The notes: generated from the sequence alone by a model not told the origin. A stretch of 64,000 bases of DNA from Bacilli bacterium (GCA_017441845.1 JAFRVB010000008.1:46143-110142); one strand, 5' to 3'. Positions 9,451 through 58,712 are shown, counted from the first letter of the stretch. Numbers and translations: made by a program.

Positions 9451-12400
9451 TTAACTACCACTCACTAGTTTTTTCTTTACAATTATCATTTCATAATCAC
9501 TATCTATTAAAGTATCACTGTCATATAACTTAAATGTTAATTTATAAGATCCAGATGTTAAACTACTTTGGAAATCCCAATCTATACTTATAGGTGAACT
9601 ACTTAAAGTAATCTGTTTTTCATATAAACTCTGTGGATGATTAGGACTACTTAGATTAACATCAAATAACGATGTTATATCAACTTCATTATATGTAGTA
9701 TCCTCACTATCATTAGTAGTTCTCTTATATAGAGATACTCTAATATTAGGATTATTTAATGTAGATGTATATTTAACAGTATAAGCATTATGATTATTAC
9801 CTAATTCATTTAAGGCTAATGCTCCATCTACAACTTTATTCTCATCGACACCATTAACAACAATTGAACTTGTCGTCGCGACTACAGTAACATTCTTATC
9901 TGTTACTACTGGATTAGCAGGTGCGTGCATACCATCAGATGAAGAGAATAAACTAAATCTAAATGTATAGTTTCCAGCTGGCAATAATTTATCTGTTTTA
10001 AAGACCATATTATTAGTCAAGTTAGAAACTTTACCCGCGAGTTTAATTCTAAAGATACCATCCGCATCTGCGAAGTAATCTTGATTACCTAAATGAATCG
10101 ACGTACCAGTAAGTAATGATGAACTTACTGTGTTACCACTATGATCGATTATTTCAAGGTTAATACCCATCGCATTACTTTCATAGTTAGTATCGATAAT
10201 AGATTCTCTACCATCAGTAACATTATATGTAACAGCTGTAGTTAAAGTTACATTATTATCAATATCTTGATATACAAATGAACCCATATTAACAGTTTCA
10301 GTTAATGTAGAGTTTGCTGAATCATATGTAGAATAAACCATATGTTCTTGACGAGGTGCTAATACATAATACATTGTTCTATCTTCGTTATTTCTTAGCT
10401 CAAATAAGAATGTATTACCTTTATTTTCACCTGTATTAGTACAATTCTTCAAATCTACTATGAACATAAATTCTTCTACTACTAAGTTATATGTAGAATT
10501 ATAGTAAATTTGATTCATAGTTTCATCATCATATGTATTTGTAGTTGTTGTTGAGTCCATTGCGATGAAGTCTGACAACAAGTACGTGACTTCATGATCA
10601 GTCTGTAATTGTTGAGTCTTCTGAGCGTAATTCGTCGCATCGACGGTGTAATAATACTCTTTCGGCTCACCATCGACCGAGGTATCAATCATCGTAATTT
10701 CAGCACCTACAGGTAATGCATAATCGCTTACAATCGCATGATAGTTATCTCCATCATCACCATAGAATTTCTTAAAACTTTCAGGTGAAGCAACCATTGA
10801 GAAATATGCACTAAATTGACTTCGATTAGTGATATTTACAGCAGTTGCTGAAGGCATATCATACTTCTTACCATAAGTAATTGAAGCATCGTAGGCATCA
10901 TCCATATCGAACTCTATCGCATCTAAATTGATTGTTATTGTAACTAATTGTTCATTAAATTCTATTGCATTTCTAGGAGTTAAGGCTTGTAGTGTTAAAA
11001 CTACTGTTCCTAAATCTCCTGTATATGTAATGTTTTTAGCATGGTAGAAATAGAACATCAATGAAGGTGCAATAGATTGAGTATCTGTTTTATACGTTTC
11101 TGTTCCCGTATAATCACCATTATTAACACTCAGCAACTTCGTCGTTCCATAACTTGTCCACTCTCTTGTCTCAGCTTTCATCGAAATACCGAAAGTTGAA
11201 TTAGCAGTTGTTGCATCATAAGCAACTTTAGGCACGTTATTTGAATCTACTAAACTGATTCCATCTTCTAAATCAGCAGCATCAAAGTCTAATACGTTGA
11301 ATGTTGTTGAACCTGTACCAAAGTCATCCATAACTAGGTTATATGTACCTAATGATGAATATTTAGAAGCAGAAAGATTAAATTCATAATTAATTGTATT
11401 AACACCTATTGACCAAATATAGTAATCTGCGCTATTTGGATGTGGTGTAATATACTGAGTCTTCAATTCAGTATAAGTATCATTAGCATTGACATTAGTA
11501 TAGAATCCATCTACTTCAATATCATGATCAGTAACATGAGCACCTTTTACGTAACTACCTGCGAAGATATAATTAGTTGATTCAGTAGTATCACCATAAT
11601 TATAACTATCTTCATAAACACCAAAGTTAGGGTTATGTCCAGTACCAGTATACATTCCGAAGAATGTCATACCCCAAACTTCACCAGGTACTGTAGCATC
11701 CTGTGAAGTAGCAACATTCAATGCTTTATTAGCTAACATGTATAGCCTATTATCAACAGTTCTAGTTACTGTTTTACTCTCATCATCAATATCAACGTCT
11801 GCTTTTACTTCTTGCCCATCTTCACCAACCATTGATTTAAATGTTTCCAAAAGGTTAGCATTCTCTCTAAGTAGTAACATAGTACCATTCTTAATAGTAA
11901 AGTCAGGTACCCTACTTATAGAATATTTATAAGTCTGATATTCATTAGTAGAATCGATAGCACCTGATAATTCTAAACAACTATTATCAATTACTACTTT
12001 ATTAGCTCTTTGAATAGAAACTGATTCATTGATATGATCTCTAGTTCCTAGATTTCTAATATAAATTGTACTTGTTGCAGTATCAGCAATAACTGAGTTG
12101 TTACCTGAACCAAAGAATGATCCATTTACAATAAAGTCATGACTATGTGTACCATAATCTTTACCATCTATAATAATTTGCGCATCATCTGTAACAGATA
12201 CAAATGAGAAGTCGTAAATATCACTACCAGAAGCGTTTGCTTCACCTCCGGCAAAGACTGTTCCGTAAATATGAAGATCAGCTTCAGTTAAAGTTACTCC
12301 ACTTGGCATAGCTTCAGTTCCTAGATATACATTAGTATTACCATAAACTACTGAGGTATTAGCTCCACCATAGACATTACCATAGATTGTTCCACCAGTA

Positions 12401-15400
12401 ATGTAGACGTTAGCTTTACTTGTAGCAGGACTAACTTCTCCAGTAGCAGCGGCATTTCCTGAACCAAAGACACTACCTGTTGCTGGTTTTCCAATCTCTT
12501 GGTCAGTACCAATTACTGAATCACCATCAATGTAAATTGATGAATTTCCTTTAACAACGGCAGTAGAACCATTACCTCCGGCATAAGCAGAACCATTAAT
12601 TTCCCCATTAGTTATACGAAGTACAGTATTACCAGTAACAACTCCTTGGTTACCTCCACCATAGACATTTCCAGTAATAGTTGAATCATCAATGTCTACT
12701 GAGGTATTACCATTAACTTGAGCTTGGTTACCTCCACCATAAAGTACTCCAATTTCAGATCCATGTTTAACTATAACAGTTGTTGTACCAGTATTGGCTT
12801 GATTACCTCCACCATATACAGCATTAACTGTAGCTTTATCTATAGTAACTTTAGGATTTGATGTAATTCCACCTTCGTTATTACCTCCATATACGCTACC
12901 AACATTAACAGTATTACTATTATTTCCAACTTGAACATCAGAATTAGTAACATTTCCTTGTTCGTTAGCACCACCATATACATCAGTAATATTTCCACCT
13001 AGTATCTTAACATTAGTATTAGTAACTCCTATTTTGTTACCTCCACCAAAGACACTACCAACATCTCCGGCATAAGTGAAGACATAAGAATCACCAACTG
13101 AACCATCTACATTATTACCACCATATACTTCATTGATATTAATATTTCCATTAGTACCAGTATTAACACCAATTACTACTCTGGTTTGATTAACTGTACC
13201 ATTACTATTTGATCCACCAAATACTTGGTCAGCAGTACCAGATAATACAGTAACATTAGTCCCAGAAGTAACACCAGCAGCGTATCCACCACCATAGACA
13301 TCATTTACTGTACCACTAGTGATTGTTACATTTGTAGTTGTACAACTAGCTTGGTTTCCTCCACCATAGATATCACCAGAAATAGTTGCACCATTGAAAT
13401 CAACATTAGTTGTTGTTACTGTACCTCCCAAGTTGTTTCCTCCATAGATGTTCGCAACAGAACCAGAAGTTGCAGTAACATGTGTAGTTGTAACATTACC
13501 ACTATTATTAGATCCTCCATATATGTTAGATGTTACAGTAGAACCTTGTAAATAAACATTAGTTGTAGTTTGACCAGTGTTATTTCCTCCACCATAAACA
13601 TTTCCAATAGTTCCACCTTTTAAGTAAACAACATCACCCTTAGCAGGAGAACCCATTTGATCATTTCCACCATATACAGCAGTAATATTACCACCATTTA
13701 TATTGACTGTAACATCACCCCAAACATTAGGAGTAAATGTTCTATTATTGTAAGTACCACCCTTAGCGCCTCCAAAGACACTTCCAGTTACAGTACCTTT
13801 ATTAACATTAACTGTCGTTGTGTAATTTGATGTTGAATTAGAATTATAGTTTCCATTTACAGTTCCAAATGCAGATCCACCATAAACATTCTCTCCAATT
13901 TTTAAACTAGTTGCGCTTGTAGTATTAGTAGCATCTCCGACATTTACTGTAACATTTCTAGTAACCGCTGTACCATTAGTTCGTCCAGTACCACTAGTTA
14001 CTCTACCTCCTTCACCACCACCATATACACTCTTAGTGACAGTTCCATTAACTAAATTGATATTAACATTTCCATAAATTGTACCTTTGGCATTACTACC
14101 ACCATAGATAGAATCAGAAACAGTACAATCACCATCCATAGTGATATTAATATTAGAAACTACTGAGGAATCACCAGCACCATTGTTATTACCTCCACCA
14201 TAGACACTACCTTTAACATCACCAGATTTTAAAATTATTTTGGTATTAGTAGTACCACTAGCATTTAATCCAACAGCTCCAAAGTTACCTCCACCATAGA
14301 CATCACCATTGATAGTACCACCATCAATGAGTACTGTAGAGTTTAAAGCTGTACCAATGTCATCTCTTGAATTGTTACCATTACCAATACCAAAGACATT
14401 ACCAATTCCTTGACCAAATGCAGTCGAAGTTCCAGTAACACCAACAGTCGCTGTACCACCAACATAGACAAATGTTGAACCATTCAAGATACCTGTTTCA
14501 GAACTATAGCCACTAATCGCGTATCCATTTGATCCTCCAAAGACACTTGATCTTACTGTCGAACCAGTTAGGTTAATAATACGATTACCATAAGTCTCGG
14601 CAGAACCAGCTCCACCAAAGACAACATCAATAATTCCACCTTTTAAGTTCATAAAAGTATCATTTTGGTTAGTTCTTGTACTACTAGTACCAAGCCCTCC
14701 AACCAAAACGTAGATATCTCCACCTTCAACTACAATTGTACGAGTAGCATATACAGTACCACCACGTCCACCAACATAGATTCCAGTGAATGGGTCGTAT
14801 TTACTGGTACCAAATTTACCACTCTTAACATAAATCGTATAAAGGTTTCCTTGCTCACTAGAAGAACGTAAAGTACCTCCAGCAGCACCTTGTACAGAAT
14901 AATAAACATCTAAGTTTGTATTATTAGCATTTGTAATTCTATCATAATCACAACCTAAAATTAGTTGCCCATCTAAGTATAAATTACCAGAATATTGTTT
15001 AGTTTCAGTACCATAGATATTACTATATCTACCACTCTCAACAATAGTTGTATATCTTTCTGGAGCTGATGATGAACCAACAGTTGTTGTAATACCTCCA
15101 GCACTTCCTCCAAAGACAGAAGTTGCTGCTACATAACGTGCATCAGTAATACCTCTACCTATTTTTAAGTTATGATAATTTGCAATAATTGCTACAGTAT
15201 TATTAGAAAGACCAGAGTTAGTCAACTGAGTAGACCTAGCTGTTCTATTGTAAAAATACATATACTCAATTCTAGCATCTTCATTTAACATCAAATAGTT
15301 ATTAGAGTTTGTAATTCTACGATTACTATAAAGTGTACCATTATCCATACCAGTAACAGTACATGGCTTAGATATAGTAAACGCTGTAGTATCAGAAGTA

Positions 15401-17499
15401 ATAAGCATGATATTAGTATCTCTAGTAACTAAGTAATAATATTGTTCATCTCCAGAAGCTAAAGTAGTATTAAGATCTTGTACTAAATCATAAACTTCAC
15501 AAGTACCAGAACATGTTCCAGATAATTGAGATCCAATACTATTGTAATAACCAACTTGAGATTGTCCATTACTTAAACTTTTCTTTTCAAAGTATCCCGC
15601 AACACTATCTCCAATATTAATTAAGTATGAATAGTTATAACTTACAGGTTGAGGAAGAGTACCATTATATACTTGTGGATTACCATTATTACGTAACGTA
15701 TAAACAGTTTCAGTAGTATATTCATATACTCTCAAATAATATGTACAATCTTGAGCAACCCATCCTTGACGTCTATCCCAATAAGGTGTACATGAACTAT
15801 TCTCTAAACTTTGTCTATTTTGGTTAACTGCTCCAGCAGGATAAGGAACACCACTTTGATTAGTAGTAGAATTTATAGTTCTTCTAACATAAACTTCTGG
15901 GAAAGTAATTCCAGGAGCATAAACTGGTGTTTTATTAGTAATAGGAACCATACCTCTACTCTTTAAACTACTTTGATTATTACCAGTTACTTTAGTAGCT
16001 TCAGTCCATGAAGCTTGAACATTAATATTTACTACATCTCCATCATAATTACTAGCAATAGGTACTTTCAAATATCTAACATAAACATCAGTATCTAGTG
16101 TAATTGTCGCATTAGGATAATTAGTAACCCATCCATTAAATGCTTTATCATTAGGTCTATCTGCATAAGGACTATCAATTAATGGAATCTCAATATATTT
16201 ATTACTTCCACTACCTTGAATAGGATAATATTTATAATAAATAAACTTAGATACTTGTTCATCTAAAGATACATATCCTACAGCACTACTATCATTAATA
16301 TCTTCTCCATCATAAGAAATATAAACTTTAGCTAAATTAGTATTAGTATAAAGATTCAAATTAGTACCATCAGGTATAACTCCATCAGTTTTACCTGTAT
16401 AATTACGACCCATAAAGTCATTATAGTCACTTTCTAAATCATTAACATATAAAGTATCTCCTGATCTACCACTATCATGTAGTGTAATAGTTCTAGGATT
16501 AAATCCAAAAGATGTAGGTTTATTAACAGGTTTCTTGTCTTCTACTCCAACATAGAATAAATTCTCACTATCATATTTCCATACTAAGTCTTTTAAATCT
16601 CTATTAAATAAATCTAAAGCAGTAGTTACACTATACTCTTCATCTTCATATACTAGTTTGTTTTCTCCACTCATTTTAATTACATATTCACTAGTAATAC
16701 CTTCTTCAATATAATTGAATTCTTCTAACTCTAAACTAGTATCAACTCTATAAACAACATTAGTAATATTAGTAATAAGATTACTACTTACTATAGCAAC
16801 ATTAGTATTATATTTAGAACTAATCTTACCATCTACAAAGATATTTTTAATACTTTTAATCTCATCAATACTACCAGTTAATAAACCTATACCACTACCA
16901 GCAATACTCTTAGTATTAGCAAGATTAATAGTAACTCTAGATACACTAACGTTATAAATATCACTATCTCCAGTAATAAATCCTGCTAGTCCACCTACAA
17001 ATAACATCTTACTATTTTGAACAGGTTCTATGTTAAAGTTACTAATATTTAAATTCTTAATTGAAGCATCTTCTAAATTAGAAAATAATCCATAGCATTC
17101 AGAATTATCAATATCATAACTACTAGTCATATTGATATTAGAAATGAAATTTCCATTACCATCTAAATGTCCTTTAAAAGTGGCAAAAGGAGTAATATAG
17201 TGATTATCCAAGTCTATATTAGCTCCTAATTTATAGTATTTATCTACATATTCTTCATCTTGTTCTTCCAAGACTTTCTTAAAGTACATCAACTGATTTC
17301 CATCATTGATGACATACGGATTAGCCTCAGTACCATTACCCGAAGCAAAATCTGTACCAACGGTAATACCATCCCATTTTGTATAAGTAATCTCTGCTAA
17401 AGAACCATTAGAAAAAAAAGAAACAATACTAAAAGAAAAAACTAATAGTACAAACATAGCAAAAGTAATATACATTAATTTATTCTTTGTATTGTTCAT
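9451..17499 (-). CDS. Giant (2682 aa) secreted adhesin-like protein: GLUG-type N-terminal region, ~1000-aa Gly-rich beta-helix repeat core, Ig-like C-terminal region
   Basis: Single uninterrupted 8-kb ORF. Leader ...FFSNGSLA|EITY. The N-terminus reads GTEANPYVI..FKGHLDGNGNFISNINM..YGLFSNL..FVGGLAGFI (GLUG-like). The core repeats [VI][YF]GG[GSN]N..G.V..T.V every ~25 aa. No LPxTG or other recognisable wall anchor. Confidence 0.8.
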   Translation of the reverse strand: MNNTKNKLMYITFAMFVLLVFSFSIVSFFSNGSLAEITYTKWDGITVGTDFASGNGTEANPYVINDGNQLMYFKKVLEEQDEEYVDKYYKLGANIDLDNHYITPFATFKGHLDGNGNFISNINMTSSYDIDNSECYGLFSNLEDASIKNLNISNFNIEPVQNSKMLFVGGLAGFITGDSDIYNVSVSRVTINLANTKSIAGSGIGLLTGSIDEIKSIKNIFVDGKISSKYNTNVAIVSSNLITNITNVVYRVDTSLELEEFNYIEEGITSEYVIKMSGENKLVYEDEEYSVTTALDLFNRDLKDLVWKYDSENLFYVGVEDKKPVNKPTSFGFNPRTITLHDSGRSGDTLYVNDLESDYNDFMGRNYTGKTDGVIPDGTNLNLYTNTNLAKVYISYDGEDINDSSAVGYVSLDEQVSKFIYYKYYPIQGSGSNKYIEIPLIDSPYADRPNDKAFNGWVTNYPNATITLDTDVYVRYLKVPIASNYDGDVVNINVQASWTEATKVTGNNQSSLKSRGMVPITNKTPVYAPGITFPEVYVRRTINSTTNQSGVPYPAGAVNQNRQSLENSSCTPYWDRRQGWVAQDCTYYLRVYEYTTETVYTLRNNGNPQVYNGTLPQPVSYNYSYLINIGDSVAGYFEKKSLSNGQSQVGYYNSIGSQLSGTCSGTCEVYDLVQDLNTTLASGDEQYYYLVTRDTNIMLITSDTTAFTISKPCTVTGMDNGTLYSNRRITNSNNYLMLNEDARIEYMYFYNRTARSTQLTNSGLSNNTVAIIANYHNLKIGRGITDARYVAATSVFGGSAGGITTTVGSSSAPERYTTIVESGRYSNIYGTETKQYSGNLYLDGQLILGCDYDRITNANNTNLDVYYSVQGAAGGTLRSSSEQGNLYTIYVKSGKFGTSKYDPFTGIYVGGRGGTVYATRTIVVEGGDIYVLVGGLGTSSTRTNQNDTFMNLKGGIIDVVFGGAGSAETYGNRIINLTGSTVRSSVFGGSNGYAISGYSSETGILNGSTFVYVGGTATVGVTGTSTAFGQGIGNVFGIGNGNNSRDDIGTALNSTVLIDGGTINGDVYGGGNFGAVGLNASGTTNTKIILKSGDVKGSVYGGGNNNGAGDSSVVSNINITMDGDCTVSDSIYGGSNAKGTIYGNVNINLVNGTVTKSVYGGGEGGRVTSGTGRTNGTAVTRNVTVNVGDATNTTSATSLKIGENVYGGSAFGTVNGNYNSNSTSNYTTTVNVNKGTVTGSVFGGAKGGTYNNRTFTPNVWGDVTVNINGGNITAVYGGNDQMGSPAKGDVVYLKGGTIGNVYGGGNNTGQTTTNVYLQGSTVTSNIYGGSNNSGNVTTTHVTATSGSVANIYGGNNLGGTVTTTNVDFNGATISGDIYGGGNQASCTTTNVTITSGTVNDVYGGGYAAGVTSGTNVTVLSGTADQVFGGSNSNGTVNQTRVVIGVNTGTNGNININEVYGGNNVDGSVGDSYVFTYAGDVGSVFGGGNKIGVTNTNVKILGGNITDVYGGANEQGNVTNSDVQVGNNSNTVNVGSVYGGNNEGGITSNPKVTIDKATVNAVYGGGNQANTGTTTVIVKHGSEIGVLYGGGNQAQVNGNTSVDIDDSTITGNVYGGGNQGVVTGNTVLRITNGEINGSAYAGGNGSTAVVKGNSSIYIDGDSVIGTDQEIGKPATGSVFGSGNAAATGEVSPATSKANVYITGGTIYGNVYGGANTSVVYGNTNVYLGTEAMPSGVTLTEADLHIYGTVFAGGEANASGSDIYDFSFVSVTDDAQIIIDGKDYGTHSHDFIVNGSFFGSGNNSVIADTATSTIYIRNLGTRDHINESVSIQRANKVVIDNSCLELSGAIDSTNEYQTYKYSISRVPDFTIKNGTMLLLRENANLLETFKSMVGEDGQEVKADVDIDDESKTVTRTVDNRLYMLANKALNVATSQDATVPGEVWGMTFFGMYTGTGHNPNFGVYEDSYNYGDTTESTNYIFAGSYVKGAHVTDHDIEVDGFYTNVNANDTYTELKTQYITPHPNSADYYIWSIGVNTINYEFNLSASKYSSLGTYNLVMDDFGTGSTTFNVLDFDAADLEDGISLVDSNNVPKVAYDATTANSTFGISMKAETREWTSYGTTKLLSVNNGDYTGTETYKTDTQSIAPSLMFYFYHAKNITYTGDLGTVVLTLQALTPRNAIEFNEQLVTITINLDAIEFDMDDAYDASITYGKKYDMPSATAVNITNRSQFSAYFSMVASPESFKKFYGDDGDNYHAIVSDYALPVGAEITMIDTSVDGEPKEYYYTVDATNYAQKTQQLQTDHEVTYLLSDFIAMDSTTTTNTYDDETMNQIYYNSTYNLVVEEFMFIVDLKNCTNTGENKGNTFLFELRNNEDRTMYYVLAPRQEHMVYSTYDSANSTLTETVNMGSFVYQDIDNNVTLTTAVTYNVTDGRESIIDTNYESNAMGINLEIIDHSGNTVSSSLLTGTSIHLGNQDYFADADGIFRIKLAGKVSNLTNNMVFKTDKLLPAGNYTFRFSLFSSSDGMHAPANPVVTDKNVTVVATTSSIVVNGVDENKVVDGALALNELGNNHNAYTVKYTSTLNNPNIRVSLYKRTTNDSEDTTYNEVDITSLFDVNLSSPNHPQSLYEKQITLSSSPISIDWDFQSSLTSGSYKLTFKLYDSDTLIDSDYEMIIVKKKLVSGS
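12060..15130 (-). repeat. In-frame degenerate ~75-nt (about 25-aa) beta-helix repeat array inside the giant gene
   Basis: Runs such as VYGGGNNTGQTTTNVYLQGSTVTSN / IYGGSNNSGNVTTTHVTATSGSVAN / IYGGNNLGGTVTTTNVDFNGATISGD / IYGGGNQASCTTTNVTITSGTVND. Boundaries are read from GITDARYVAATSVFGGSAGG (~15120) to FFGSGNNSVIAD (~12100). Confidence 0.7.
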
Positions 17500-31710: not shown

Positions 31711-31794
31711 GCTCGCGTGGCGGAACTGGTAGACGCGCACGACTCAAAATCGTGTAACTTTGTTGTAAGGGTTCGAGTCCCTTGGCGAGCACCA
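31711..31794 (+). tRNA. tRNA-Leu (anticodon CAA), class II, CCA encoded
   Basis: Acceptor GCTCGCG/..GCGAGC-A-CCA (one 7-66 mismatch). The D arm contains GG. Anticodon stem CACGA/TCGTG with loop CTCAAAA. Long variable arm. T arm AAGGG-TTCGAGT-CCCTT. Confidence 0.9.
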
Positions 31795-46995: not shown

Positions 46996-47023
46996 AAAAC
47001 AAAAACTAGCATATTGCTAGTTT
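46996..47023 (-). terminator. Terminator closing the HEPN-like/242-aa unit
   Basis: aaactagca-tat-tgctagttt, with an A-rich run on plus upstream giving a T-run on minus. It abuts the stop at 47022. Confidence 0.6.
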
Positions 47024-47750
47024 ATTGTAATGGATTATCTATCTTTTCAACTTTACCTATATCATAGTATTTTAAATGAATATTTAAGTTCTTTTTACAT
47101 AGCTTCATAGTAGTACAATAACTACTTAAATCATAACTAATAGTACTTATAACACCAGCTTCATCATAAGAAATACTAATCTTAACAGGATCATCGCTAT
47201 AATCAGTAGTTTTATCATCAATTATTTTATTAATATTATTAATACTTATTAATAAGAATAATTCTACTCTACCATCGTTATAAGTAATATTATGATCTAA
47301 TGTAGCTTCTTCTAATATTTTGTCTATATAAGCTAAATTATAAAACTTATAGAATTTACTACATTCATCACTTTCAATCCATTTTAGATTTTCATATTTA
47401 AAAAGACCATCTTTATTACGAAAATATTTATTAGTAATTTTTCCATTACTACAAGTAAATTCTTCTCTATCTTCATTAATTTTTCCATTTATTTTTATAA
47501 CAGTATTATCATGAATAACACCATAATTATAAGCATAATTAAATTTTAATAAATCTACTATATTAGCACCATTATCTTTATTATTAGCATTTCTAATATC
47601 TTCTAATTGTTTTTCTAAAGGATAATGAGCAGAAGTTCTAGCAATAACCATTAAAATTAGCAACAATAAAGCAAAACCTATAAAAAACCATATAGCTTTT
47701 CCTCTTTTACTATCACTAGTTTTTTTTATGAAATCAATTGCTTCTTTCAT
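47022..47750 (-). CDS. N-terminally anchored hypothetical protein (242 aa), co-transcribed with the dual-RNxxxH protein
   Basis: TM segment AIWFFIGFALLLLILMVIA followed by about 190 extracytoplasmic residues. There is a 30-nt gap to the upstream ORF with no terminator between them. Confidence 0.45.
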   Translation of the reverse strand: MKEAIDFIKKTSDSKRGKAIWFFIGFALLLLILMVIARTSAHYPLEKQLEDIRNANNKDNGANIVDLLKFNYAYNYGVIHDNTVIKINGKINEDREEFTCSNGKITNKYFRNKDGLFKYENLKWIESDECSKFYKFYNLAYIDKILEEATLDHNITYNDGRVELFLLISINNINKIIDDKTTDYSDDPVKISISYDEAGVISTISYDLSSYCTTMKLCKKNLNIHLKYYDIGKVEKIDNPLQ

Positions 47751-47780
47751 TATAACTCCTTATCATAACAATTATATTAC

Positions 47781-50561
47781 TTATCTAGTATGTTGTCTAC
47801 TTCCTATATCTTTAGTTTCCAAATTCAATTCAATTTGATGAGTAAGTTCAACCAATTTATTAATATCCATAATAATATTAAAATTATTATGTTGATCGCG
47901 ATCAGCTTTATCATACAAATAAACTTTATCTTCTACTATATTACCATCTTCATCTTTAACAGGTTTAAATCTAAAATGACATATAGAATTTCTCATCTTA
48001 TCTAAAATATTATTTTTTAATGATTCATCAGTTCTTTCAGTACCTGTTCCATCTAAAGTAAATTGTCTTAAATAAGTTGTGTCATCCATATCTACATCAG
48101 TAATATTATTTTTATATTTCATTGTATCTCTAACGCAAGAAAGTATTATTTGTAATGGAGTTTCGTCAATAAGATCATAATCAGCATTTTCTTTTTGATA
48201 GTTTTTTAATACACTATCACAATAAACTAATGTAGCAATTAATTTTGGATTATTAATACCAAATATACTTTTAGCAAGATTTTCATTATAATTTTTATAC
48301 ATTTCATCTACTAATGCAGAATCACACTCAAAGAATTCTTTAGGTAATTTTTTCAAACGTTCATAATCATCATCAACCAAATCCAACAAATAATTTATTC
48401 TATCAACTAAATCATCATCAACATAATGACCCCTTTCACCACATTTTTCCAAATAAACGTCATAAGAAAATTGATTTACATCTATCCCATTATTAAAAAG
48501 AGTTGAAACTAAATCTGGTAAGTAAAAAAAACCACTATCTAACTTATAAATATCTATCCCTTGATCAGACAAGTAAATTGTCTTTTCAGAATTTGCTAGA
48601 GCTTCTTTAGGGAGATTATAAATATTAATTTTTTTATGTTTTAAATCAATAATTTTATCTGCATAAAGCAAGGAATCATATGGAATTTGACAAAAATCTA
48701 TTCCTTCTTTTATTAATTGTATAGCTTCTTGGGGATGCTCAAAAGCACCAAAAGGTAAATTATAAATATTTATACCTTGGTTAAATAATTCTAAAGCAGA
48801 TTCAGAATTATAAAACGCTTCTTTAGAAATACTATAAATATCTATTCCAGCATCTCGTAATTTTAAAACTTCATCAGGATATTCAAAGGCAATATCAGGT
48901 AAATTATAAATATCTATTCCATTTTCAAATAATTCGATAGTAGATTTTGAATGTGCAAATGCTTTATTGGGAATATTATATATATCTATTCCGAGCTCAA
49001 ATAATCTAATAACTTCTTTAGCAAAGTAAAAAGCATTATATGATAATTTATAAACATCTATTTTTTTATCATGCATATCAATAACATCTTGTACATTGAT
49101 AAACGCAGTATCCTTCAACCTATATATATCAAAACCTTTATTTTTTAATAATACGACATTTTCAGGAAATTCAAAAGCACCAAACTCGATATTAGTAATA
49201 TCTATACCATTATCCTGCAAAAAAAGTGTTCCTTCTCCTTTTACATATGCAATATATGGTAATTGAGACAATTCATTAATTTTTATACCTCTTGCTAACA
49301 ATTTTGCTGTTAATTTAGGATATTCAAATGCTTCAAAACATAAATCGTTCATGTTAATATTCAATTCATTAAATAACAAGGTGGCTTGAGGAAAATAAAA
49401 AGCACATTCCGGTAATTCCATCAAGTTAAGACCTTTATCAAAAAATAGTAGTGTTGTATCAATATTTTTAAAAACACTAGAAGGTAATCCCTTAATATCA
49501 ATCTCTTTCTTAATTAATTTTTTAGTTCCATCATAATTATCATATACAGTACTAGGTAAATTACTTATATCGACTCCTTTTTCATACAAATCAACAGCAC
49601 ATTCTGGATTTTTAAACACTGATATATTTAGACTATTTATATCCTCCAAGCTAATACCATGTTCAAACAAATATCTAAAACCTTCTTCATTATTAAAAAT
49701 ATTTATATTTAACTCATATAGTTTATCATAATCATAATCCAACAATTCAAGTAAATAGTTTAAATAACATGGTTCAACATTATAGAAAAAACTTTCTACT
49801 TTTTTTACATCGTAACCAAGTTCTTTTAATATTGAAGATGATATAGTGCTAGTTTTTTCTACTAATATTTTATCTTCCTCGTAAGCTATTATCCTTCCAT
49901 TAGTTAATCCATTTACGTATTCAATTGGTATTTTCACACTAAAGCCATTTTCATTTATAAACATTTCATTATTTATATCAGCAGTGCCATGTTGGATAGC
50001 ATTTCTTAATTTATGGATTATATTAATAGATTGTTTTAATACGTTTACAGCTTCTAACTTTTCTATCTCATCATTAGAATTTTCTAGCTTTACCCAATCA
50101 ATTTTACTATAAATTTCTATCGCTTCTTTATAGTTTCTTAACAACTCTCTTTTTGCATTAACTTGAACCTTAAATGCAGCTTTTTCTTCTTCAATTTTCA
50201 AATGTTCTTCAGTATTAGTTGCAGCATCGTGTTTACTTGCAATTCTATTAAGTTCATCTTTCATATCATTTAATTCTTTAAGAAATTTATCATACTCTTG
50301 ATATAAAGTATCATTCTCTTTTATATATTCACCCAAAAAAATAATATTCCAAATATCATTATAATTATTTAAATCAAAGATTAAGTTGCTTCCTTCTTTT
50401 CTAATAATAAGTTCTTTTCTTTTTATAAAGCGCGAAATAACACTCTTAAAATACGGATCTCCACTACTAAACATTCCATCCCTTCCGAATAAAATGTTTT
50501 CAGTTTCTTCCATGCCGTTAGCTGATATTACATTTTTAGCAACTTCATATAATCTTGACAT
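47781..50561 (-). CDS. Cytoplasmic 926-aa protein: HEPN-like RNxxxH motif - ~17 x 24-aa solenoid repeats - HEPN-like RNxxxH motif
   Basis: KLRNAIQHG (R186/H191) and KMRNSICHF (R857/H862). Central units resemble GIDIYNLPDIAFEYPDEVLKLRDA. No signal peptide or TM segment. Family unknown to me. Confidence 0.5.
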   Translation of the reverse strand: MSRLYEVAKNVISANGMEETENILFGRDGMFSSGDPYFKSVISRFIKRKELIIRKEGSNLIFDLNNYNDIWNIIFLGEYIKENDTLYQEYDKFLKELNDMKDELNRIASKHDAATNTEEHLKIEEEKAAFKVQVNAKRELLRNYKEAIEIYSKIDWVKLENSNDEIEKLEAVNVLKQSINIIHKLRNAIQHGTADINNEMFINENGFSVKIPIEYVNGLTNGRIIAYEEDKILVEKTSTISSSILKELGYDVKKVESFFYNVEPCYLNYLLELLDYDYDKLYELNINIFNNEEGFRYLFEHGISLEDINSLNISVFKNPECAVDLYEKGVDISNLPSTVYDNYDGTKKLIKKEIDIKGLPSSVFKNIDTTLLFFDKGLNLMELPECAFYFPQATLLFNELNINMNDLCFEAFEYPKLTAKLLARGIKINELSQLPYIAYVKGEGTLFLQDNGIDITNIEFGAFEFPENVVLLKNKGFDIYRLKDTAFINVQDVIDMHDKKIDVYKLSYNAFYFAKEVIRLFELGIDIYNIPNKAFAHSKSTIELFENGIDIYNLPDIAFEYPDEVLKLRDAGIDIYSISKEAFYNSESALELFNQGINIYNLPFGAFEHPQEAIQLIKEGIDFCQIPYDSLLYADKIIDLKHKKINIYNLPKEALANSEKTIYLSDQGIDIYKLDSGFFYLPDLVSTLFNNGIDVNQFSYDVYLEKCGERGHYVDDDLVDRINYLLDLVDDDYERLKKLPKEFFECDSALVDEMYKNYNENLAKSIFGINNPKLIATLVYCDSVLKNYQKENADYDLIDETPLQIILSCVRDTMKYKNNITDVDMDDTTYLRQFTLDGTGTERTDESLKNNILDKMRNSICHFRFKPVKDEDGNIVEDKVYLYDKADRDQHNNFNIIMDINKLVELTHQIELNLETKDIGSRQHTR
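48460..49700 (-). repeat. In-frame 72-nt (24-aa) tandem repeat array, about 17 diverged units
   Basis: GIDIYNIPNKAFAHSKSTIELFEN / GIDIYNLPDIAFEYPDEVLKLRDA / GIDIYSISKEAFYNSESALELFNQ / GINIYNLPFGAFEHPQEAIQLIKE / ... read from the translation. Confidence 0.75.
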
Positions 50562-50582
50562 ATTATCACTTACCTTAAATTA

Positions 50583-50591
50583 ATTATAACA
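50583..50591 (-). promoter_or_regulatory. Extended -10 promoter (TGtTATAAT) of the HEPN-like gene
   Basis: The reverse complement of attataaca (50583-50591). It lies between the fmt terminator hairpin and the ATG at 50561. Confidence 0.45.
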
Positions 50592-50598
50592 TACATAA

Positions 50599-50640
50599 TA
50601 AAAAGATAGTTAACATTCAAACTAACTATCTCTTTTTTTA
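50599..50640. terminator. Hairpin terminator after fmt
   Basis: agatagtta (50604-50612) / taactatct (50623-50631). T4 follows on minus and T7 on plus. Confidence 0.55.
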
Positions 50641-51587: not shown

Positions 51588-52655
51588 TCATAAAAATAAT
51601 ATTAAAGTTACAACAACCCCTAATGTTATTAATATTGATCCAGCAATTATAAATGTAGATACTACACCTTCACTATTAATCTTTATCTCTTCAGGTGTTT
51701 CCTCTATCTTTTCTTTTAAATTATCAATATTTAAAAACTCTATATCTTTAGAATCAATATCTTTATTACATATAACATTATTATAATTATTATTAATTAA
51801 TCTATCTAAAATAATAAAATAATCTTCTTCTTTAAATTCATCAATAAATTTATCTAAATCTAATTTATTATTATCAATAACTTTTCTTTTAACTAGAATA
51901 AAACTACTATTATTATAATTATCATTATTTAATAATTTCCATTCTCTATTAAACACATCTATAATTTTATTACTATCTTCTAAAGAAATATTTAATTTCT
52001 TAATAACTTTATTAATATTATCTAAACAACTCTTATAATCTTTCTTAACATAGCAATCTTTATCATTAAGATGTTCATCTCCACATATTAAATCATAAAA
52101 GTACATAGGGCTTCTTAATGAATAAAAATAAGCTAATTCCATACTATCAGTAAATACTACTTCATCTAAAGTAAAATCTTTATTAATATAGTTATCTTTA
52201 TATTTATTAAGTATCTCTTTTAACATAATAAAATCATTATATAAATTAGTATACTTATTAATCTTAAATCCATTATTTTTAATACTCTCAGTATATATAG
52301 GACTATAAGCATGTATAAAATAACCATTCTCTATATATTTTAAATATACATATCTAATAAATTCTTCTTTATCAGTAATATTAACTTTATTTACTAAGAT
52401 CATACTAAGTAATTTATTAATACCATCTTTAATACTAAATTCTTTTTCTATTCTTCTAAATAATAAATCTAATTCTACTAAATAATTTTCATAATAACCT
52501 ATATTATCAATTATTAAACTAAATTTATATATTGCATCATAAAAGATTCCAATTAAATCATAATTAGAATACTCTCTTCCTTTATATATTTCATAGGTAT
52601 AAAGTTTATCTATGAATTCTTTTGTGTCATCTCTCTCTAGTAATTCTTTAAACAT
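51588..52655 (-). CDS. Tail-anchored hypothetical protein (355 aa)
   Basis: Soluble N/K/Y-rich body with a single C-terminal TM segment (VVSTFIIAGSILITLGVVVTLILFL). It occupies the slot where def usually lies. Confidence 0.45.
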   Translation of the reverse strand: MFKELLERDDTKEFIDKLYTYEIYKGREYSNYDLIGIFYDAIYKFSLIIDNIGYYENYLVELDLLFRRIEKEFSIKDGINKLLSMILVNKVNITDKEEFIRYVYLKYIENGYFIHAYSPIYTESIKNNGFKINKYTNLYNDFIMLKEILNKYKDNYINKDFTLDEVVFTDSMELAYFYSLRSPMYFYDLICGDEHLNDKDCYVKKDYKSCLDNINKVIKKLNISLEDSNKIIDVFNREWKLLNNDNYNNSSFILVKRKVIDNNKLDLDKFIDEFKEEDYFIILDRLINNNYNNVICNKDIDSKDIEFLNIDNLKEKIEETPEEIKINSEGVVSTFIIAGSILITLGVVVTLILFL

Positions 52656-52936
52656 TAACCAGTACCTCTCATAATAATAAATACTGTTCCAACTATAATA
52701 ATAATCGCTAGAACTAATAGTATTAATCTTACTAATGGATCTTTTTTATCATAATAATCACTCTTCTTAGATCCAGATTCATCCATAAGTTTTTGATAAT
52801 ATTCTTGATTTTTCTTATTAGCTTCTACTTCTTGTCCATCATTTTCAAAAACTATATCTTCTTGTTCACTATTATAATTAGATCCCTTATTATCAAAAAA
52901 TTGCATAGACACACCTCTATTCTCTAATATAAACAT
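52655..52936 (-). CDS. Small tail-anchored hypothetical protein (93 aa)
   Basis: Acidic N-terminus and C-terminal TM segment LVRLILLVLAIIIIVGTVFII. Its stop overlaps the next start. Confidence 0.4.
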   Translation of the reverse strand: MFILENRGVSMQFFDNKGSNYNSEQEDIVFENDGQEVEANKKNQEYYQKLMDESGSKKSDYYDKKDPLVRLILLVLAIIIIVGTVFIIMRGTG

Positions 52937-55193: not shown

Positions 55194-56186
55194 TTATCTA
55201 TTAGTAACACCAATTAATTTCGCATGAACTACTTTTCTACCTTTATTATCATCAGTACAAGTAGATAATGTAATTATTTGATCACTACCATTAACATTAA
55301 CATTATATTTCTGTTTACTCTTATTTTTTAATCTTTTCACAAAGACATCAAACTCTGTATTATCATTAAATGATACTTGTAAATAATCTACTATAGGAGG
55401 ACTATAATAATTAGAAAATATCTCATAAATATATTTCTTGTTATCCATCAAAACAATAATCATATGATTACTACTATTATACCATTTCTTAGTAAATACT
55501 CTCGCTATAGTACCAAAAGAAGTACCATTAAGTAAATTATGTCCATAGAAAATAGTATTCTTATCATTTAGATTATGATTTCGATAATCCATAAATACCC
55601 ATCCATTCCTATTATAAGTTCTATTAAATGAATGGTTTAAATAATAATCATTATTACTACTCTTAACTACAGGATAATTAATATTAGTACCATCAACAGC
55701 TATCCAAGCTACTGTATTAGAATTAACTTTTCTTAAATTATTAAAATTAACATCACTTAATCTAGTAGCCCCAAACTTATAAAAAGAATAATTACCTAAT
55801 ACACTATCATATTTATCTTCTTTCTTAATACGATCATTATTCTCTTTCTTATCTTCTTTTTCTTCTTCATCTGTTTTATCATTCTTTTCAATTGAAGTAG
55901 TACCCTCATCTAATTTAACAGTATTACTAGGAGAATAAATAATACCAAAAATAGTAGTAAAACTAAATATATAAATTACTATTAAAAATAATGTTTCTGG
56001 TTTTCCCCTCTTATATAGATTATCTATAGTTTTATCAAATTTATTTCTAAATATTTTATTAAAAATTTTCACAATAAAAATACTAATACTATAAAAACCA
56101 TTACTAATAGTATTAACTATGAATAAAAATCCATTAATTGTAGTCTCAAATATATAAGAAAAAAATCTTTTCATCTTATTCACCAT
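55194..56186 (-). CDS. srtB: Class B sortase with an extended N-terminal region
   Basis: VAWIAVDGTNINYPVV..NNDYYLNHSF..GWVFMDYRN..NTIFYGHNLLNGTSFGTI..IITLSTCT. Confidence 0.8.
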   Translation of the reverse strand: MVNKMKRFFSYIFETTINGFLFIVNTISNGFYSISIFIVKIFNKIFRNKFDKTIDNLYKRGKPETLFLIVIYIFSFTTIFGIIYSPSNTVKLDEGTTSIEKNDKTDEEEKEDKKENNDRIKKEDKYDSVLGNYSFYKFGATRLSDVNFNNLRKVNSNTVAWIAVDGTNINYPVVKSSNNDYYLNHSFNRTYNRNGWVFMDYRNHNLNDKNTIFYGHNLLNGTSFGTIARVFTKKWYNSSNHMIIVLMDNKKYIYEIFSNYYSPPIVDYLQVSFNDNTEFDVFVKRLKNKSKQKYNVNVNGSDQIITLSTCTDDNKGRKVVHAKLIGVTNR

Positions 56187-56585: not shown

Positions 56586-58712
56586 TTAAACTAAAGTTAA
56601 ATATCCTCCTTGAGTTGTTGGCTTAGCCATACTTACATCAACAATACTTGAATTAAAGTTAGGTAAGTTACCACAATTATAAAACATTCTAGAAGAAGCG
56701 GTAACATTACTAACATCCCATAAATTTGATATTTTAATCTGTCTTACTTTACTACATCCATCAAACATAAATGCCATATCTGTTACATTAGATGTATCAA
56801 AACTACTTAAATCTAAACTAAGTAATTCCATATCCTTTACATATCCAGTAGTATTATTAGGAGCACCAAACATAGATCTCATATCTGTTACATTGGATGT
56901 ATTAAAACTAGACACATTAAGAGTTTTTAATTCAGTACAATATTCAAACATACTCTCCATCGTAGTTACATTAGATGTATCAAAGTTATCTACTTTTAAA
57001 GTTGTTAAACTGCTACAACCACAAAACATATCTGACATATCAGTTACATTACCTGTATTAAAACTATTTAAATTCAAAGATGTTAAACTGTTACAATGAT
57101 AAAACATATCTGACATATCAGTTACTCTGCTTGTATTAAAGTTTCTTATATCGAGACTTATTAAACTACTACAATTACGAAACATATCTGACATATTGGT
57201 TACACTACTTGTATTAAAGTTGGTTACATCTAAACTTGTTAAACTACTACAGCCATTAAACATATAATTCATTTTTGTTACATTACTTGTATTAAAGTTG
57301 GTTACATCTAGACTAATTAAGTTCCTACAATTATAAAACATATCTTGCATATTTGTTACATTACTTGTACTAAAGTTTGTCAAATTGAGACTTGTTAAAC
57401 TACTGCAACTATCAAACATATATGACATATCTGTTACATTATCTGTATTAAAGTTGGTTACATCTATACTTGATAGACTACTACAATTATAAAACATATG
57501 TGACATATTTGTTACATTATCTGTATTAAAGTTGGTTACATCTAAACTTGTTAAACTTCTACAACCATTAAACATAGACGACATATTGGTTACATTGTTT
57601 GTATTAAAGTTGGTTACATCTAAACTTGTTAAACTTCTACAACCATTAAACATAGACGACATATTGGTTACATTGTCTGTATTAAAATTTGTTACATCAA
57701 GACTAATTAAGTTCCTACAATTATAAAACATATTTGACATATTTGTTACATTGTCTGTATTAAAGTTCGTTACATTTAGACTTGATAGACTACTACAATT
57801 ATAAAACATATAATCCGTCCTTATAGTATTACTGATATTAAAATTAGTTATATCTAAGCTTGTTAAACTACTACAATTTAAAAACAAAGATGACATAGAA
57901 GTCGCATTAATAGTATTAAAGTTAGATACATTAAGACTAGTTAATCCACTACAATTAGAAAAAACTGATGACATATTTGATACGCTAATTGTATTAAAGT
58001 TTGAAAGATCAAGATTTGTTAAGTTTTCACAACTAGAAAACATATATAACATGCTTGTTACTTGACTTGTATTAAATGATAATAAATTCAAATTTGTTAA
58101 ACTACTGCAATAATAAAACATTCTATCCATTTCTGTGACTTTTGATGTATCAAAGTATTCTAAACCATTTATAGAAGCTAGTTTTGATGTTTTACCAGAT
58201 TTATAACTAAAAAACATAGAATCCATACTAGTTACTTTTGATGTATCAAAATTATTATTAAAGTTTATTTCTTCACATTCCATAAATTGATTAAACATAT
58301 AACTTGAATTAGTATTTCCTACTACATCTCCGTCTGATCCTATGTAAAGTTTATAGAAACCACTATTACTCGGATCATCTATTATCCATGCCATAACTTT
58401 TCCAGTATTTGGATTTATTGATACATCCCATGTCTCCACTGCATTTTCCGGTATGTTCTTATTATCTAAAAAATCTACTGATTTAATTTTATCTTTATAT
58501 GTTGAATTATGAAAATCGTCAGAAGAAGTAGAAGACCATCTCATTATCATATTACCAGGATCTTGTACATACTCAACATCTCCAGCAATATTCAAATTTT
58601 GATTTAAAGCACCAAAACCTACACTTACTAGTGTAGTTAAAAAGCATAGTATCGATATAGATACTGTTATATAGAATTTATAACTATTTATATATTTTTG
58701 TAATTGTTTCAT
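56586..58712 (-). CDS. BspA-type / 26-residue-repeat (DUF285-like) leucine-rich repeat surface protein
   Basis: About 18 units of the form FxxCxSLTSLDVTNFNTxNVTNMSxM. The leader ...LVSVGFGALNQNLNIAGDVEY is shared with the 780-aa protein. No sorting signal. Confidence 0.8.
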   Translation of the reverse strand: MKQLQKYINSYKFYITVSISILCFLTTLVSVGFGALNQNLNIAGDVEYVQDPGNMIMRWSSTSSDDFHNSTYKDKIKSVDFLDNKNIPENAVETWDVSINPNTGKVMAWIIDDPSNSGFYKLYIGSDGDVVGNTNSSYMFNQFMECEEINFNNNFDTSKVTSMDSMFFSYKSGKTSKLASINGLEYFDTSKVTEMDRMFYYCSSLTNLNLLSFNTSQVTSMLYMFSSCENLTNLDLSNFNTISVSNMSSVFSNCSGLTSLNVSNFNTINATSMSSLFLNCSSLTSLDITNFNISNTIRTDYMFYNCSSLSSLNVTNFNTDNVTNMSNMFYNCRNLISLDVTNFNTDNVTNMSSMFNGCRSLTSLDVTNFNTNNVTNMSSMFNGCRSLTSLDVTNFNTDNVTNMSHMFYNCSSLSSIDVTNFNTDNVTDMSYMFDSCSSLTSLNLTNFSTSNVTNMQDMFYNCRNLISLDVTNFNTSNVTKMNYMFNGCSSLTSLDVTNFNTSSVTNMSDMFRNCSSLISLDIRNFNTSRVTDMSDMFYHCNSLTSLNLNSFNTGNVTDMSDMFCGCSSLTTLKVDNFDTSNVTTMESMFEYCTELKTLNVSSFNTSNVTDMRSMFGAPNNTTGYVKDMELLSLDLSSFDTSNVTDMAFMFDGCSKVRQIKISNLWDVSNVTASSRMFYNCGNLPNFNSSIVDVSMAKPTTQGGYLTLV
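57531..57686 (-). repeat. Two tandem 78-nt units differing at 1 nt, inside the LRR array
   Basis: 57531-57608 and 57609-57686 are identical except for cattgtttgt vs cattgtctgt. Each encodes one 26-aa LRR unit. Confidence 0.9.

Follow-up and report, generated by a model that had tools for sequence, protein, structure and literature searches.

A candidate two-module HEPN-like ribonuclease with a central repeat solenoid, encoded in a housekeeping gene cluster of uncultured gut Bacilli

Introduction

Cas13 forms a composite active site within one chain, and in RNase L the binding of a ligand to the repeats drives the pairing of two nuclease halves. In HEPN ribonucleases (RNases), two Rx4-6H motifs together form a bipartite site (bioRxiv 10.64898/2026.02.22.705581; PMC3710099). 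The gene considered here lies at positions 47781-50561, on the minus strand, of a 64,000-nucleotide stretch from an uncultured Bacilli bacterium (GCA_017441845.1, JAFRVB010000008.1:46143-110142), referred to below as the window. Its 926-residue product carries one RNxxxH motif in each of two terminal modules, between which stands a solenoid of tandem repeats. We read it as a sensor-gated, single-gene RNase of the conflict or abortive-infection type, in which an exchangeable solenoid would be inserted between two HEPN-like modules, and we give this reading a rough probability of 0.45.

DARNA and RNase L are the closest working analogues of this protein. In DARNA (PD-T7-3), the bipartite HEPN site is active only after trigger binding, which leads to tRNA cleavage and abortive infection (bioRxiv 10.64898/2026.02.22.705581). 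Compared at the level of architecture, both are encoded by a single gene and fuse an HEPN or HEPN-like part to an alpha-helical, repeat-like domain. Whereas DARNA possesses one HEPN, builds its site by homodimerisation within a dodecamer and binds single-stranded DNA through a C-terminal Pds5-like sensor, the present protein has two modules flanking an acidic solenoid. Other fusions of HEPN to repeats are the LA2681 HEPN-TPR proteins and DZIP3/hRUL138, with LRR (leucine-rich repeat) or ankyrin repeats (PMC3710099, Table 1). Together with RNase L, they share with our protein the coupling of a repeat-domain sensor to an HEPN/KEN nuclease logic, but in RNase L-type fusions the repeats stand beside one HEPN, while here an array of another repeat type stands between two motif-bearing modules. 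Finally, CnuE of the CoCoNuT type III-A systems is a non-CRISPR single chain with two HEPN domains (PMC11090510); unlike the present protein, it belongs to multi-gene McrBC-type systems, contains coiled coils, displays a shortened RxH in its second HEPN and has no solenoid in between. A first-pass annotation of the window, made from the sequence alone, knew of no HEPN-solenoid-HEPN architecture. This exact split arrangement was indeed not found, PADLOC and NCBIfam being silent (the latter has no match for the protein), although two-HEPN chains such as CnuE and HEPN-repeat fusions have already been described.

The same annotation had pointed to a likeness to Cas13, and this holds for size and motif placement: both are single chains of ~900-1100 residues with an R-x4-H in the N-terminal quarter and another near the C-terminus. 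It does not extend further. Between the motifs, the present protein has a simple repeat solenoid where Cas13 has helical domains that bind the CRISPR RNA, and Cas13 is found neither among the Foldseek matches (E up to 10) nor among the PDB sequence-profile matches. Scans of the 64-kb window for tandem repeats and with Rfam revealed neither an array-like repeat nor a CRISPR repeat family, as had been anticipated, and none was noticed in related loci. With no CRISPR array, no sequence match and no fold match, a relationship to Cas13 was rejected.

Overall organization of the protein

The open reading frame (ORF) begins with ATG and its product is identical to the protein IJL76_02490 of an NCBI metagenome-assembled genome (MAG), annotated as "hypothetical protein [Bacilli bacterium]". 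It is a cytoplasmic, acidic protein (pI 4.7, net charge -57). As the first reading had it, the protein lacks a signal peptide and a transmembrane (TM) segment: the Kyte-Doolittle mean over 19 residues does not exceed 0.92, to be compared with 2.93 for the TM helix of the adjoining 242-residue protein.

Three regions can be delineated, all encoded on the minus strand, as are the motifs and flanking elements given below. The N-terminal module (aa 1-285, positions 49707-50561), delimited on the secondary structure predicted by AlphaFold2 (AF2), contains short helices and a long hairpin of helices (aa 85-153); the motif helix (169-191) precedes a three-strand meander (194-212) and further helices. 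It is followed by the central solenoid (aa ~282-716, positions 48414-49718), with ~18 units in tandem, 24 residues long except for one of 27. The C-terminal module (aa 717-926, positions 47784-48413), delimited on the AF2 secondary structure and on invariant columns, comprises helices, a SIFGINNPK loop (765-773) that is invariant across homologues, the motif helix (845-861), a three-strand meander (865-899) and a final helix (900-925).

The close family numbers 22 clusters, and MAGs of uncultured "Bacilli bacterium" are the source of every one. A HMMER scan of 1.84 billion cluster representatives with the profile of the N-terminal module retrieved only 82 proteins, each of them from uncultured gut Bacilli, and the GTDB species genomes contain six family loci. 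In some loci two paralogues adjoin each other, as illustrated by a 775-residue protein in L015 (3400-5727) and a 1076-residue protein in L004/L007 (4719-7949), both of which keep the two motifs. Locus L011 contains one N-module and one C-module.

Two conserved RNxxxH motifs

The N-terminal motif is RNAIQH (R186, N187 and H191; aa 186-191, positions 49989-50006), and the C-terminal one is RNSICH (R857, N858 and H862; aa 857-862, positions 47976-47993), followed by F-R-F-K-P-V-K-D. Both stand at the residues and nucleotides where they had been reported. Given the composition of the protein itself, 0.035 RNxxxH would be expected by chance. The earlier reading had also placed each motif after a long, seemingly helical stretch, and the AF2 helices 169-191 and 845-861 do end at the motifs.

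Conservation of the Arg and His residues among homologues had been put forward as a test of the proposal. R186, H191, R857 and H862 are unchanged in the 22 closest homologues, as is N858. In a wider census, the His is present in 71 of 71 N-modules and in 57 of 57 C-modules. The Arg position is occupied by R in 66 N-modules and by K in the other five, and by R in 55 C-modules and G in two. The next residue is N in 48 N-modules and D in 19 (hence N or D in 67/71), and N in 55 C-modules and D in two (57/57). It is the R, N and H of both motifs that are the most conserved residues of the family, and not those of the solenoid. Departures from the pattern are confined to identifiable members: K-D/N-x-x-x-H replaces R-N-x-x-x-H in an N-module subclade (P0050, P0054, P0058, P0063, P0066, P0073 and P0089), and in the C-module of P0080 and P0082 the motif reads G-N-S-x-R-H, the Arg being lost and another Arg occurring four residues later.

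The HEPN definition comprises an Rx4-6H with a polar N, D or H immediately after the R, located where helix 3 ends and the loop leading to helix 4 starts (PMC3710099). According to the census, both modules have the Rx4-6H and the polar residue, and in the structures predicted for the window's protein and for the distant member P0096 the motifs fall at the C-terminal end of a core helix. Judged on sequence, both motifs thus conform to the HEPN signature, while agreement at the profile level is seen for the C-terminal module only.

Relationship of the terminal modules to HEPN families

The sole above-threshold Pfam match of the protein is to PF18736 (HEPN pEK499_p136), with an E-value of 3.3e-6 and 27.3 bits for a gathering score of 26.6. 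It covers aa 844-910 (positions 47832-48032) and profile positions 79-141 of 152. The same assignment is precomputed for 9 of the 22 close-family proteins, including the query's own cluster. A reference set was assembled from the founding member WP_000528932.1, encoded by plasmid pEK499, which itself matches PF18736 over positions 1-151 (E 1.1e-49): 118 relatives were gathered and 40 diverse ones aligned. Compared by hhalign with these 40 bona fide members, the C-module scores 89% probability (E 2.3e-6), the match spanning the motif helix and the next strand (RNSxxHFRFKPVKD versus RHSIAHFxIxVIS). The segment of the PF18736 family (PMC3710099) that aligns with the C-module is therefore the motif helix, the R-[N/H]-S-x-x-H-F signature and the next strand or strands. 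Both the PF18736 proteins and ours would be metal-independent RNases of conflict systems, but the former are single-domain proteins of ~160 residues (166 for the founder, an E. coli pEK499 "HEPN family nuclease"), whereas the latter has two modules and a 430-residue solenoid. By these comparisons the relation of the C-module to PF18736 looks real and partial. An extension of the homology upstream was considered, as SIFGINNPK resembles LLGLIVLPKE by eye, and was discarded since suboptimal hhalign alignments give it no support. The HEPN identity proposed for the two regions is hence supported at the profile level in the C-terminal one, and in the N-terminal one it is limited to the motif helix.

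The N- and C-modules resemble each other weakly, and around the motif: comparison of their profiles gives 77% over 12 columns with hhalign and a best hmmsearch E-value of 8e-5, in a set of 58 sequences. Considering their parallel secondary structures together with these weak but consistent motif-helix matches, the two modules may be homologous.

Predicted structure and the solenoid-less core

The full-length AF2 model has a pLDDT (predicted local distance difference test) of 80 and a pTM (predicted template modelling score) of 0.47. Both motifs are located at C-terminal helix ends, each followed by a three-strand meander and a helix. Two distant members, P0095 (503 residues) and P0096 (344 residues), keep both modules and have no repeat array. 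P0096, modelled from a family alignment of 54 sequences, is predicted as a single compact unit (pLDDT 82, pTM 0.70) with the same parallel structure of the modules as in the window's protein, its motifs ending the predicted helices 85-106 and 267-281. In this model the two modules would pack as one globular core. The two motifs may be juxtaposed within it, an arrangement with which the model is compatible. Foldseek recognises the predicted core fold neither as HEPN nor as anything else.

The central solenoid

Sixteen units could be anchored with a regular expression between aa 330 and 693, with a 24-residue spacing for 14 of the 15 intervals and a 27-residue one for the other. Two degenerate units, at aa 281 and 305, precede this regular array. 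The consensus is G-I-D-I-y-n-L-p-x-x-A-F-x-n-p-x-x-t-i-x-L-x-x-k, with conserved scaffold positions 1-4, 7, 11-12 and 21, the others being variable. In the AF2 model the solenoid is the best-predicted part of the protein, of which it represents 47%; its pLDDT exceeds 90, and each unit is modelled with two short helices and, in extended conformation, its GIDIYNLP segment, without strands. The array is acidic, with a net charge of -27, which argues against nucleic-acid binding by it.

The first-pass annotation had described ~17 units with an LRR/BspA-like strand-turn-helix periodicity. The tandem 24-residue units and their consensus are confirmed, with a count of ~18; the strand-turn-helix assignment is not, as the model shows two helices and no strands. 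The beta strand that each unit of an LRR contributes to a parallel, horseshoe-shaped sheet is absent from the model, and Foldseek returned no LRR structure. No Pfam LRR, LRR_5, LRV or DUF285 match was obtained for the protein at E-values up to 1; as a positive control, the DUF285/LRR_5 protein encoded elsewhere in the window scores 2.9e-128 and 6.8e-23, respectively. On these grounds (Pfam with the in-window control, and the strand-free model), a BspA/DUF285 LRR identity of the repeats was rejected. The profile evidence is mixed, however: the family profile matches solved LRR proteins of the PDB by sequence (best E 4.1e-14), a match that the shared periodicity may drive, and homologue P0015 matches DUF285. 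The 24-residue periodicity and the LP-x-x-AF core are shared with LRRs and with two-helix solenoids such as those of TALE and LRV proteins, LRV standing for leucine-rich repeat variant. TALE repeats bind nucleic acid, whereas the present array is acidic.

The array is flanked by two related elements. The proximal cap, L-N-Y-L-L-E-L-L-D-Y-D-Y-D-K-L-Y-E-L-N (aa 267-285, positions 49707-49763), aligns with the distal cap, I-N-Y-L-L-D-L-V-D-D-D-Y-E-R-L-K-K-L-P (aa 722-740, positions 48342-48398), when the N and C sub-alignments are compared by hhalign. This 19-residue motif, NYLLxLVxxDYxxLxxLP, is also the repeat unit of the solenoids of ~33-residue units found in P0080 and P0082. The presence on both flanks of an element of the longer units makes the array look like an expansion between two caps.

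The repeats are exchangeable within the family. Orthologues that share 50-73% identity in their termini share only 29-41% in the solenoid, and the number of units varies. Among distant members, units of 28-34 residues are encountered, such as the ~28-30-residue "KYGIDxVxxLPxxAF" type and the near-identical ~33-residue "LEYLLEKANGELSKLKELPxGVFYNxCSEER" type. In the DNA of the window's array, Tandem Repeats Finder identifies a 144-nt period with 73% identity (48741-49062); at this level, the array appears to be old.

A diversity-generating retroelement (DGR) was considered as a diversifier of the solenoid and rejected, as its template/variable repeat pair lies within the DGR region itself. This DGR occurs in locus L006 (15277-18691), 6 kb from a family member of the metG|tatD site. 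It encodes bAvd and a reverse transcriptase, adjoins HipA_C and an ISL3 transposase, and has a 167-nt template/variable pair of 89% identity, the variable region being in an adjacent 396-residue gene and not in the HEPN-like gene.

Genomic context and accessory behaviour

In the window, a single strand carries, in this order, priA, a 93-residue gene, a 355-residue gene, fmt, the gene under study, a 242-residue gene, rlmN, a PP2C gene and a PASTA kinase gene. The order around the gene recurs in L001, L002 and L004. In the close relatives L017 and L018, which are colinear with the window on either side of a 2.9-kb gap, fmt overlaps the 242-residue gene by 4 nt and the HEPN-like gene is missing; this is absence at the fmt-rlmN site, and does not prove absence from those genomes. 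The position of the gene relative to the 242/228-residue gene flips between genomes. In some genomes the insertion site is metG|tatD, just upstream of ksgA, and further sites are found elsewhere. What is inserted in the conserved priA-fmt-rlmN-prpC-prkC housekeeping cluster of this low-GC lineage is a stand-alone accessory gene that has a predicted promoter of its own.

Putative regulatory elements bound the gene. Directly after fmt, an AT-rich palindromic hairpin, AGATAGTTA-N10-TAACTATCT, followed by a TTTTT run (50597-50631), resembles a terminator. Ahead of the ATG, at 50571-50591, stand an extended -10 promoter-like element, TGtTATAAT (50583-50591), and a ribosome-binding site, AAGGTA (50571-50576). 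The TGnTATAAT sequence is conserved upstream of the gene in L001, L002, L006, L013, L014 and L015. At every junction of family genes in fmt|rlmN loci, a hairpin (AGATAGTTAA/TTAACTATCT and a T-run) is followed by TGnTATAAT. The hairpin element is found upstream of the gene in L001, on either side in L002 (~7953 and ~10493, as identical 29-nt copies) and at the three junctions of the L004 tandem pair (~4684, ~7960 and ~10784). Either insertion or unequal recombination, the latter giving tandem duplication, may use this recurrent hairpin as a substrate.

At the other end, the sequence TAGACA-17-TATAAT (47771-47799), promoter-like by an 11/12 consensus match only, overlaps the last codons of the gene and reads into the 242-residue gene; it also occurs at the L001 orthologue's end. 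By this site the expression of the 242-residue gene, which the insertion has uncoupled from fmt, may be restored. The 242-residue gene (47022-47750) encodes a single-pass membrane protein with an N-terminal TM segment, is conserved in L001, L002, L004 and L007, and is followed by a terminator-like hairpin (47003-47023). The hypothesis that it is a dedicated partner was discarded, since fmt-242-rlmN occurs in L017 and L018 where the HEPN-like gene is missing, and no 242-residue gene is present at metG|tatD. In this lineage, it is a resident protein of the fmt-rlmN cluster.

Other features of the window

The Firmicute arrangement of the cluster is priA-def-fmt-rsmB-rlmN. Here def and rsmB are missing from it, and positions 51588-52936 and 47022-47750 hold lineage-specific membrane proteins. 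The replacing proteins, of 93, 355 (with a C-terminal TM segment) and 242 residues (with an N-terminal one), are conserved in L001, L002, L004 and L017, and have no Pfam, NCBIfam or PADLOC match.

The protein used above as a control is encoded at 56586-58712. It is a 708-residue LRR protein of the DUF285/BspA type, with a ~15-copy, 78-nt tandem repeat of 76% identity; its gene adjoins a sortase gene (55194-56186) and it is probably a surface protein. At 9451-17499, an ORF of 2682 residues without Pfam match at E-values up to 1e-5 is located in the window's sole stretch of raised GC content (33-36%, versus ~26% elsewhere), with adhesin-like genes on its flanks (Cleaved_Adhesin, VWA_2, InlB B-repeat/SHIRT). 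The window's one Rfam match is a single tRNA gene, on the plus strand at 31711-31791, and the surrounding genes are almost all on the minus strand.

Proposed mechanism and alternative explanations

In the mechanism that we propose for a sensor-gated RNase, the terminal regions would be two copies of one module, made of a long helix ending with [R/K]-[N/D]-x-x-x-H, a three-strand meander and a helix, and the C-terminal copy would be related to the pEK499_p136-type HEPN nucleases. The single chain would supply both halves of a bipartite, metal-independent RNase site. The solenoid that tethers them would bind the trigger, most likely a protein or another non-nucleic-acid ligand because the array is strongly acidic, and this binding would control the competence of the composite site. 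The activated enzyme would cut tRNA, rRNA or mRNA. It is the combination of both motifs in one chain with a tether formed by a putative ligand-binding array that suggests an RNase of the conflict or abortive-infection type. A bolder version, of which we are doubtful, would make of this family a new HEPN design, in which the halves of an obligate "dimer" are joined via a swappable solenoid (units of 24, 28-30 or 33-34 residues, or none) whose change in curvature or rigidity, induced by a ligand, opens or closes the site; it would constitute a CRISPR-independent parallel to Cas13, sensing a protein or a small ligand and not RNA.

Several results weigh against a sensor-gated HEPN RNase, and part of them would favor a new, non-HEPN fold, whose Arg, Asn and His would serve another chemistry or bind a ligand, the PF18736 match being then a motif-level convergence. 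This match is borderline, 0.7 bits above threshold, and concerns 28-40 columns around the motif. The ~152 positions of the whole domain are not covered, as the match is restricted to 79-141 and suboptimal hhalign alignments provide no upstream extension; in the alignments, the invariant positions Y22, T40-L41, C45-G48 and E55 in the N-terminal half of PF18736 have no counterpart. The N-module has no Pfam match, and compared by hhalign with the PF18736 members it reaches 45% over 16 columns, which correspond to the motif helix, so that its link is at the level of the motif. PDB sequence-profile searches with the separate N and C modules returned only spurious coiled-coil or eS17 matches, and Pfam gave no significant HEPN match on ten distant members, the sole trace being HEPN_Swt1 on P0095 (E 0.078). 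The four-helix bundle of solved HEPN structures, for which the first-pass annotation had proposed a structure search, was not recognised in either of the two models: the best Foldseek E-values were 0.31 for the full-length model against the PDB (a TALE protein, with no HEPN, Cas13 or LRR), 1.1 for the P0096 core against the PDB (350,542 chains, with no HEPN, Cas13 or other neighbor) and 0.16 for this core against BFVD, again without a neighbor, despite a confident core model (pTM 0.70). The protein does not qualify as a member of whole-domain PF18736, of Cas13, of the BspA or classical LRR proteins or of any PADLOC system, the PADLOC search (PADLOC-DB v2) having given no match at E-values up to 1 for it or its two neighbors. 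Further, not every member can hold the canonical motif pair, owing to the Arg-to-Lys (five N-modules) and Arg-to-Gly (two C-modules) replacements, and no defence island surrounds the gene.

A non-HEPN fold nevertheless seems unlikely to us. The hhalign match to the PF18736 members, at 89%, runs beyond the motif into the next strand, and the helix-end location of the motif, the polar residue after the Arg and the strict His all agree with the HEPN definition. HEPN families are structurally very divergent, and Csx1 has a beta-hairpin right after its motif (PMC3710099); Foldseek, moreover, is weak on small helical bundles with inserts. As to the genomic surroundings, the defence island that had been suggested as a possibility is replaced by a housekeeping cluster, and an Abi_2 gene is seen 4 kb downstream in L014 only. 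The comparative loci, however, reveal an accessory insertion, and the defence idea fits better than the raw context suggests.

This same context could be explained by an RNase specific to the lineage, with a housekeeping or regulatory task on the translation apparatus (maturation or quality control of rRNA or tRNA), and expressed along with fmt, rlmN and rsgA. Several genomes have the gene tightly packed between fmt and rlmN and on their strand, in the rsmB position of other Firmicutes; the metG|tatD site upstream of ksgA is also translation-related, and defence genes are not adjacent. HEPN enzymes such as Las1 do process rRNA (bioRxiv 10.64898/2026.02.22.705581). We hold such a role to be distinctly improbable, considering the close relatives whose site is empty at this exact position (for that site only), and the terminator-like hairpin and promoter proper to the gene, which shows no translational coupling, unlike the fmt/242 pair of the empty site. 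Insertion site, copy number and repeat type vary, and the array diverges faster than the putative catalytic modules, which is a pattern typical of conflict genes. Least probable of all, with a very slender chance in our view, is a scaffold or adaptor devoid of catalysis, whose solenoid would be a protein-binding platform and whose terminal modules would only cap it or dimerise. The share and prediction quality of the solenoid, the cap motif common to the flanks and to repeat units, and the highly acidic character of the protein, unusual for an RNA-binding enzyme, would be in line with it, but conservation is highest at the R, N and H of the motifs and not in the solenoid, and the solenoid-less members retain both modules.

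Significance

If the sensor-gated RNase proposed here is correct, the family would represent a second independent design of single-chain, two-HEPN RNase after Cas13, in which a repeat solenoid and not a guide RNA is the allosteric element. Nature provides variants to dissect its mechanism: members without solenoid, members with other unit lengths, R-to-K and R-to-G motifs, and tandem paralogues. A further gain would be a defence or conflict family from the reduced genomes of uncultured gut Bacilli, a group almost absent from the catalogues of defence systems. Evidently, housekeeping operons can harbour such genes, which then escape searches based on islands.

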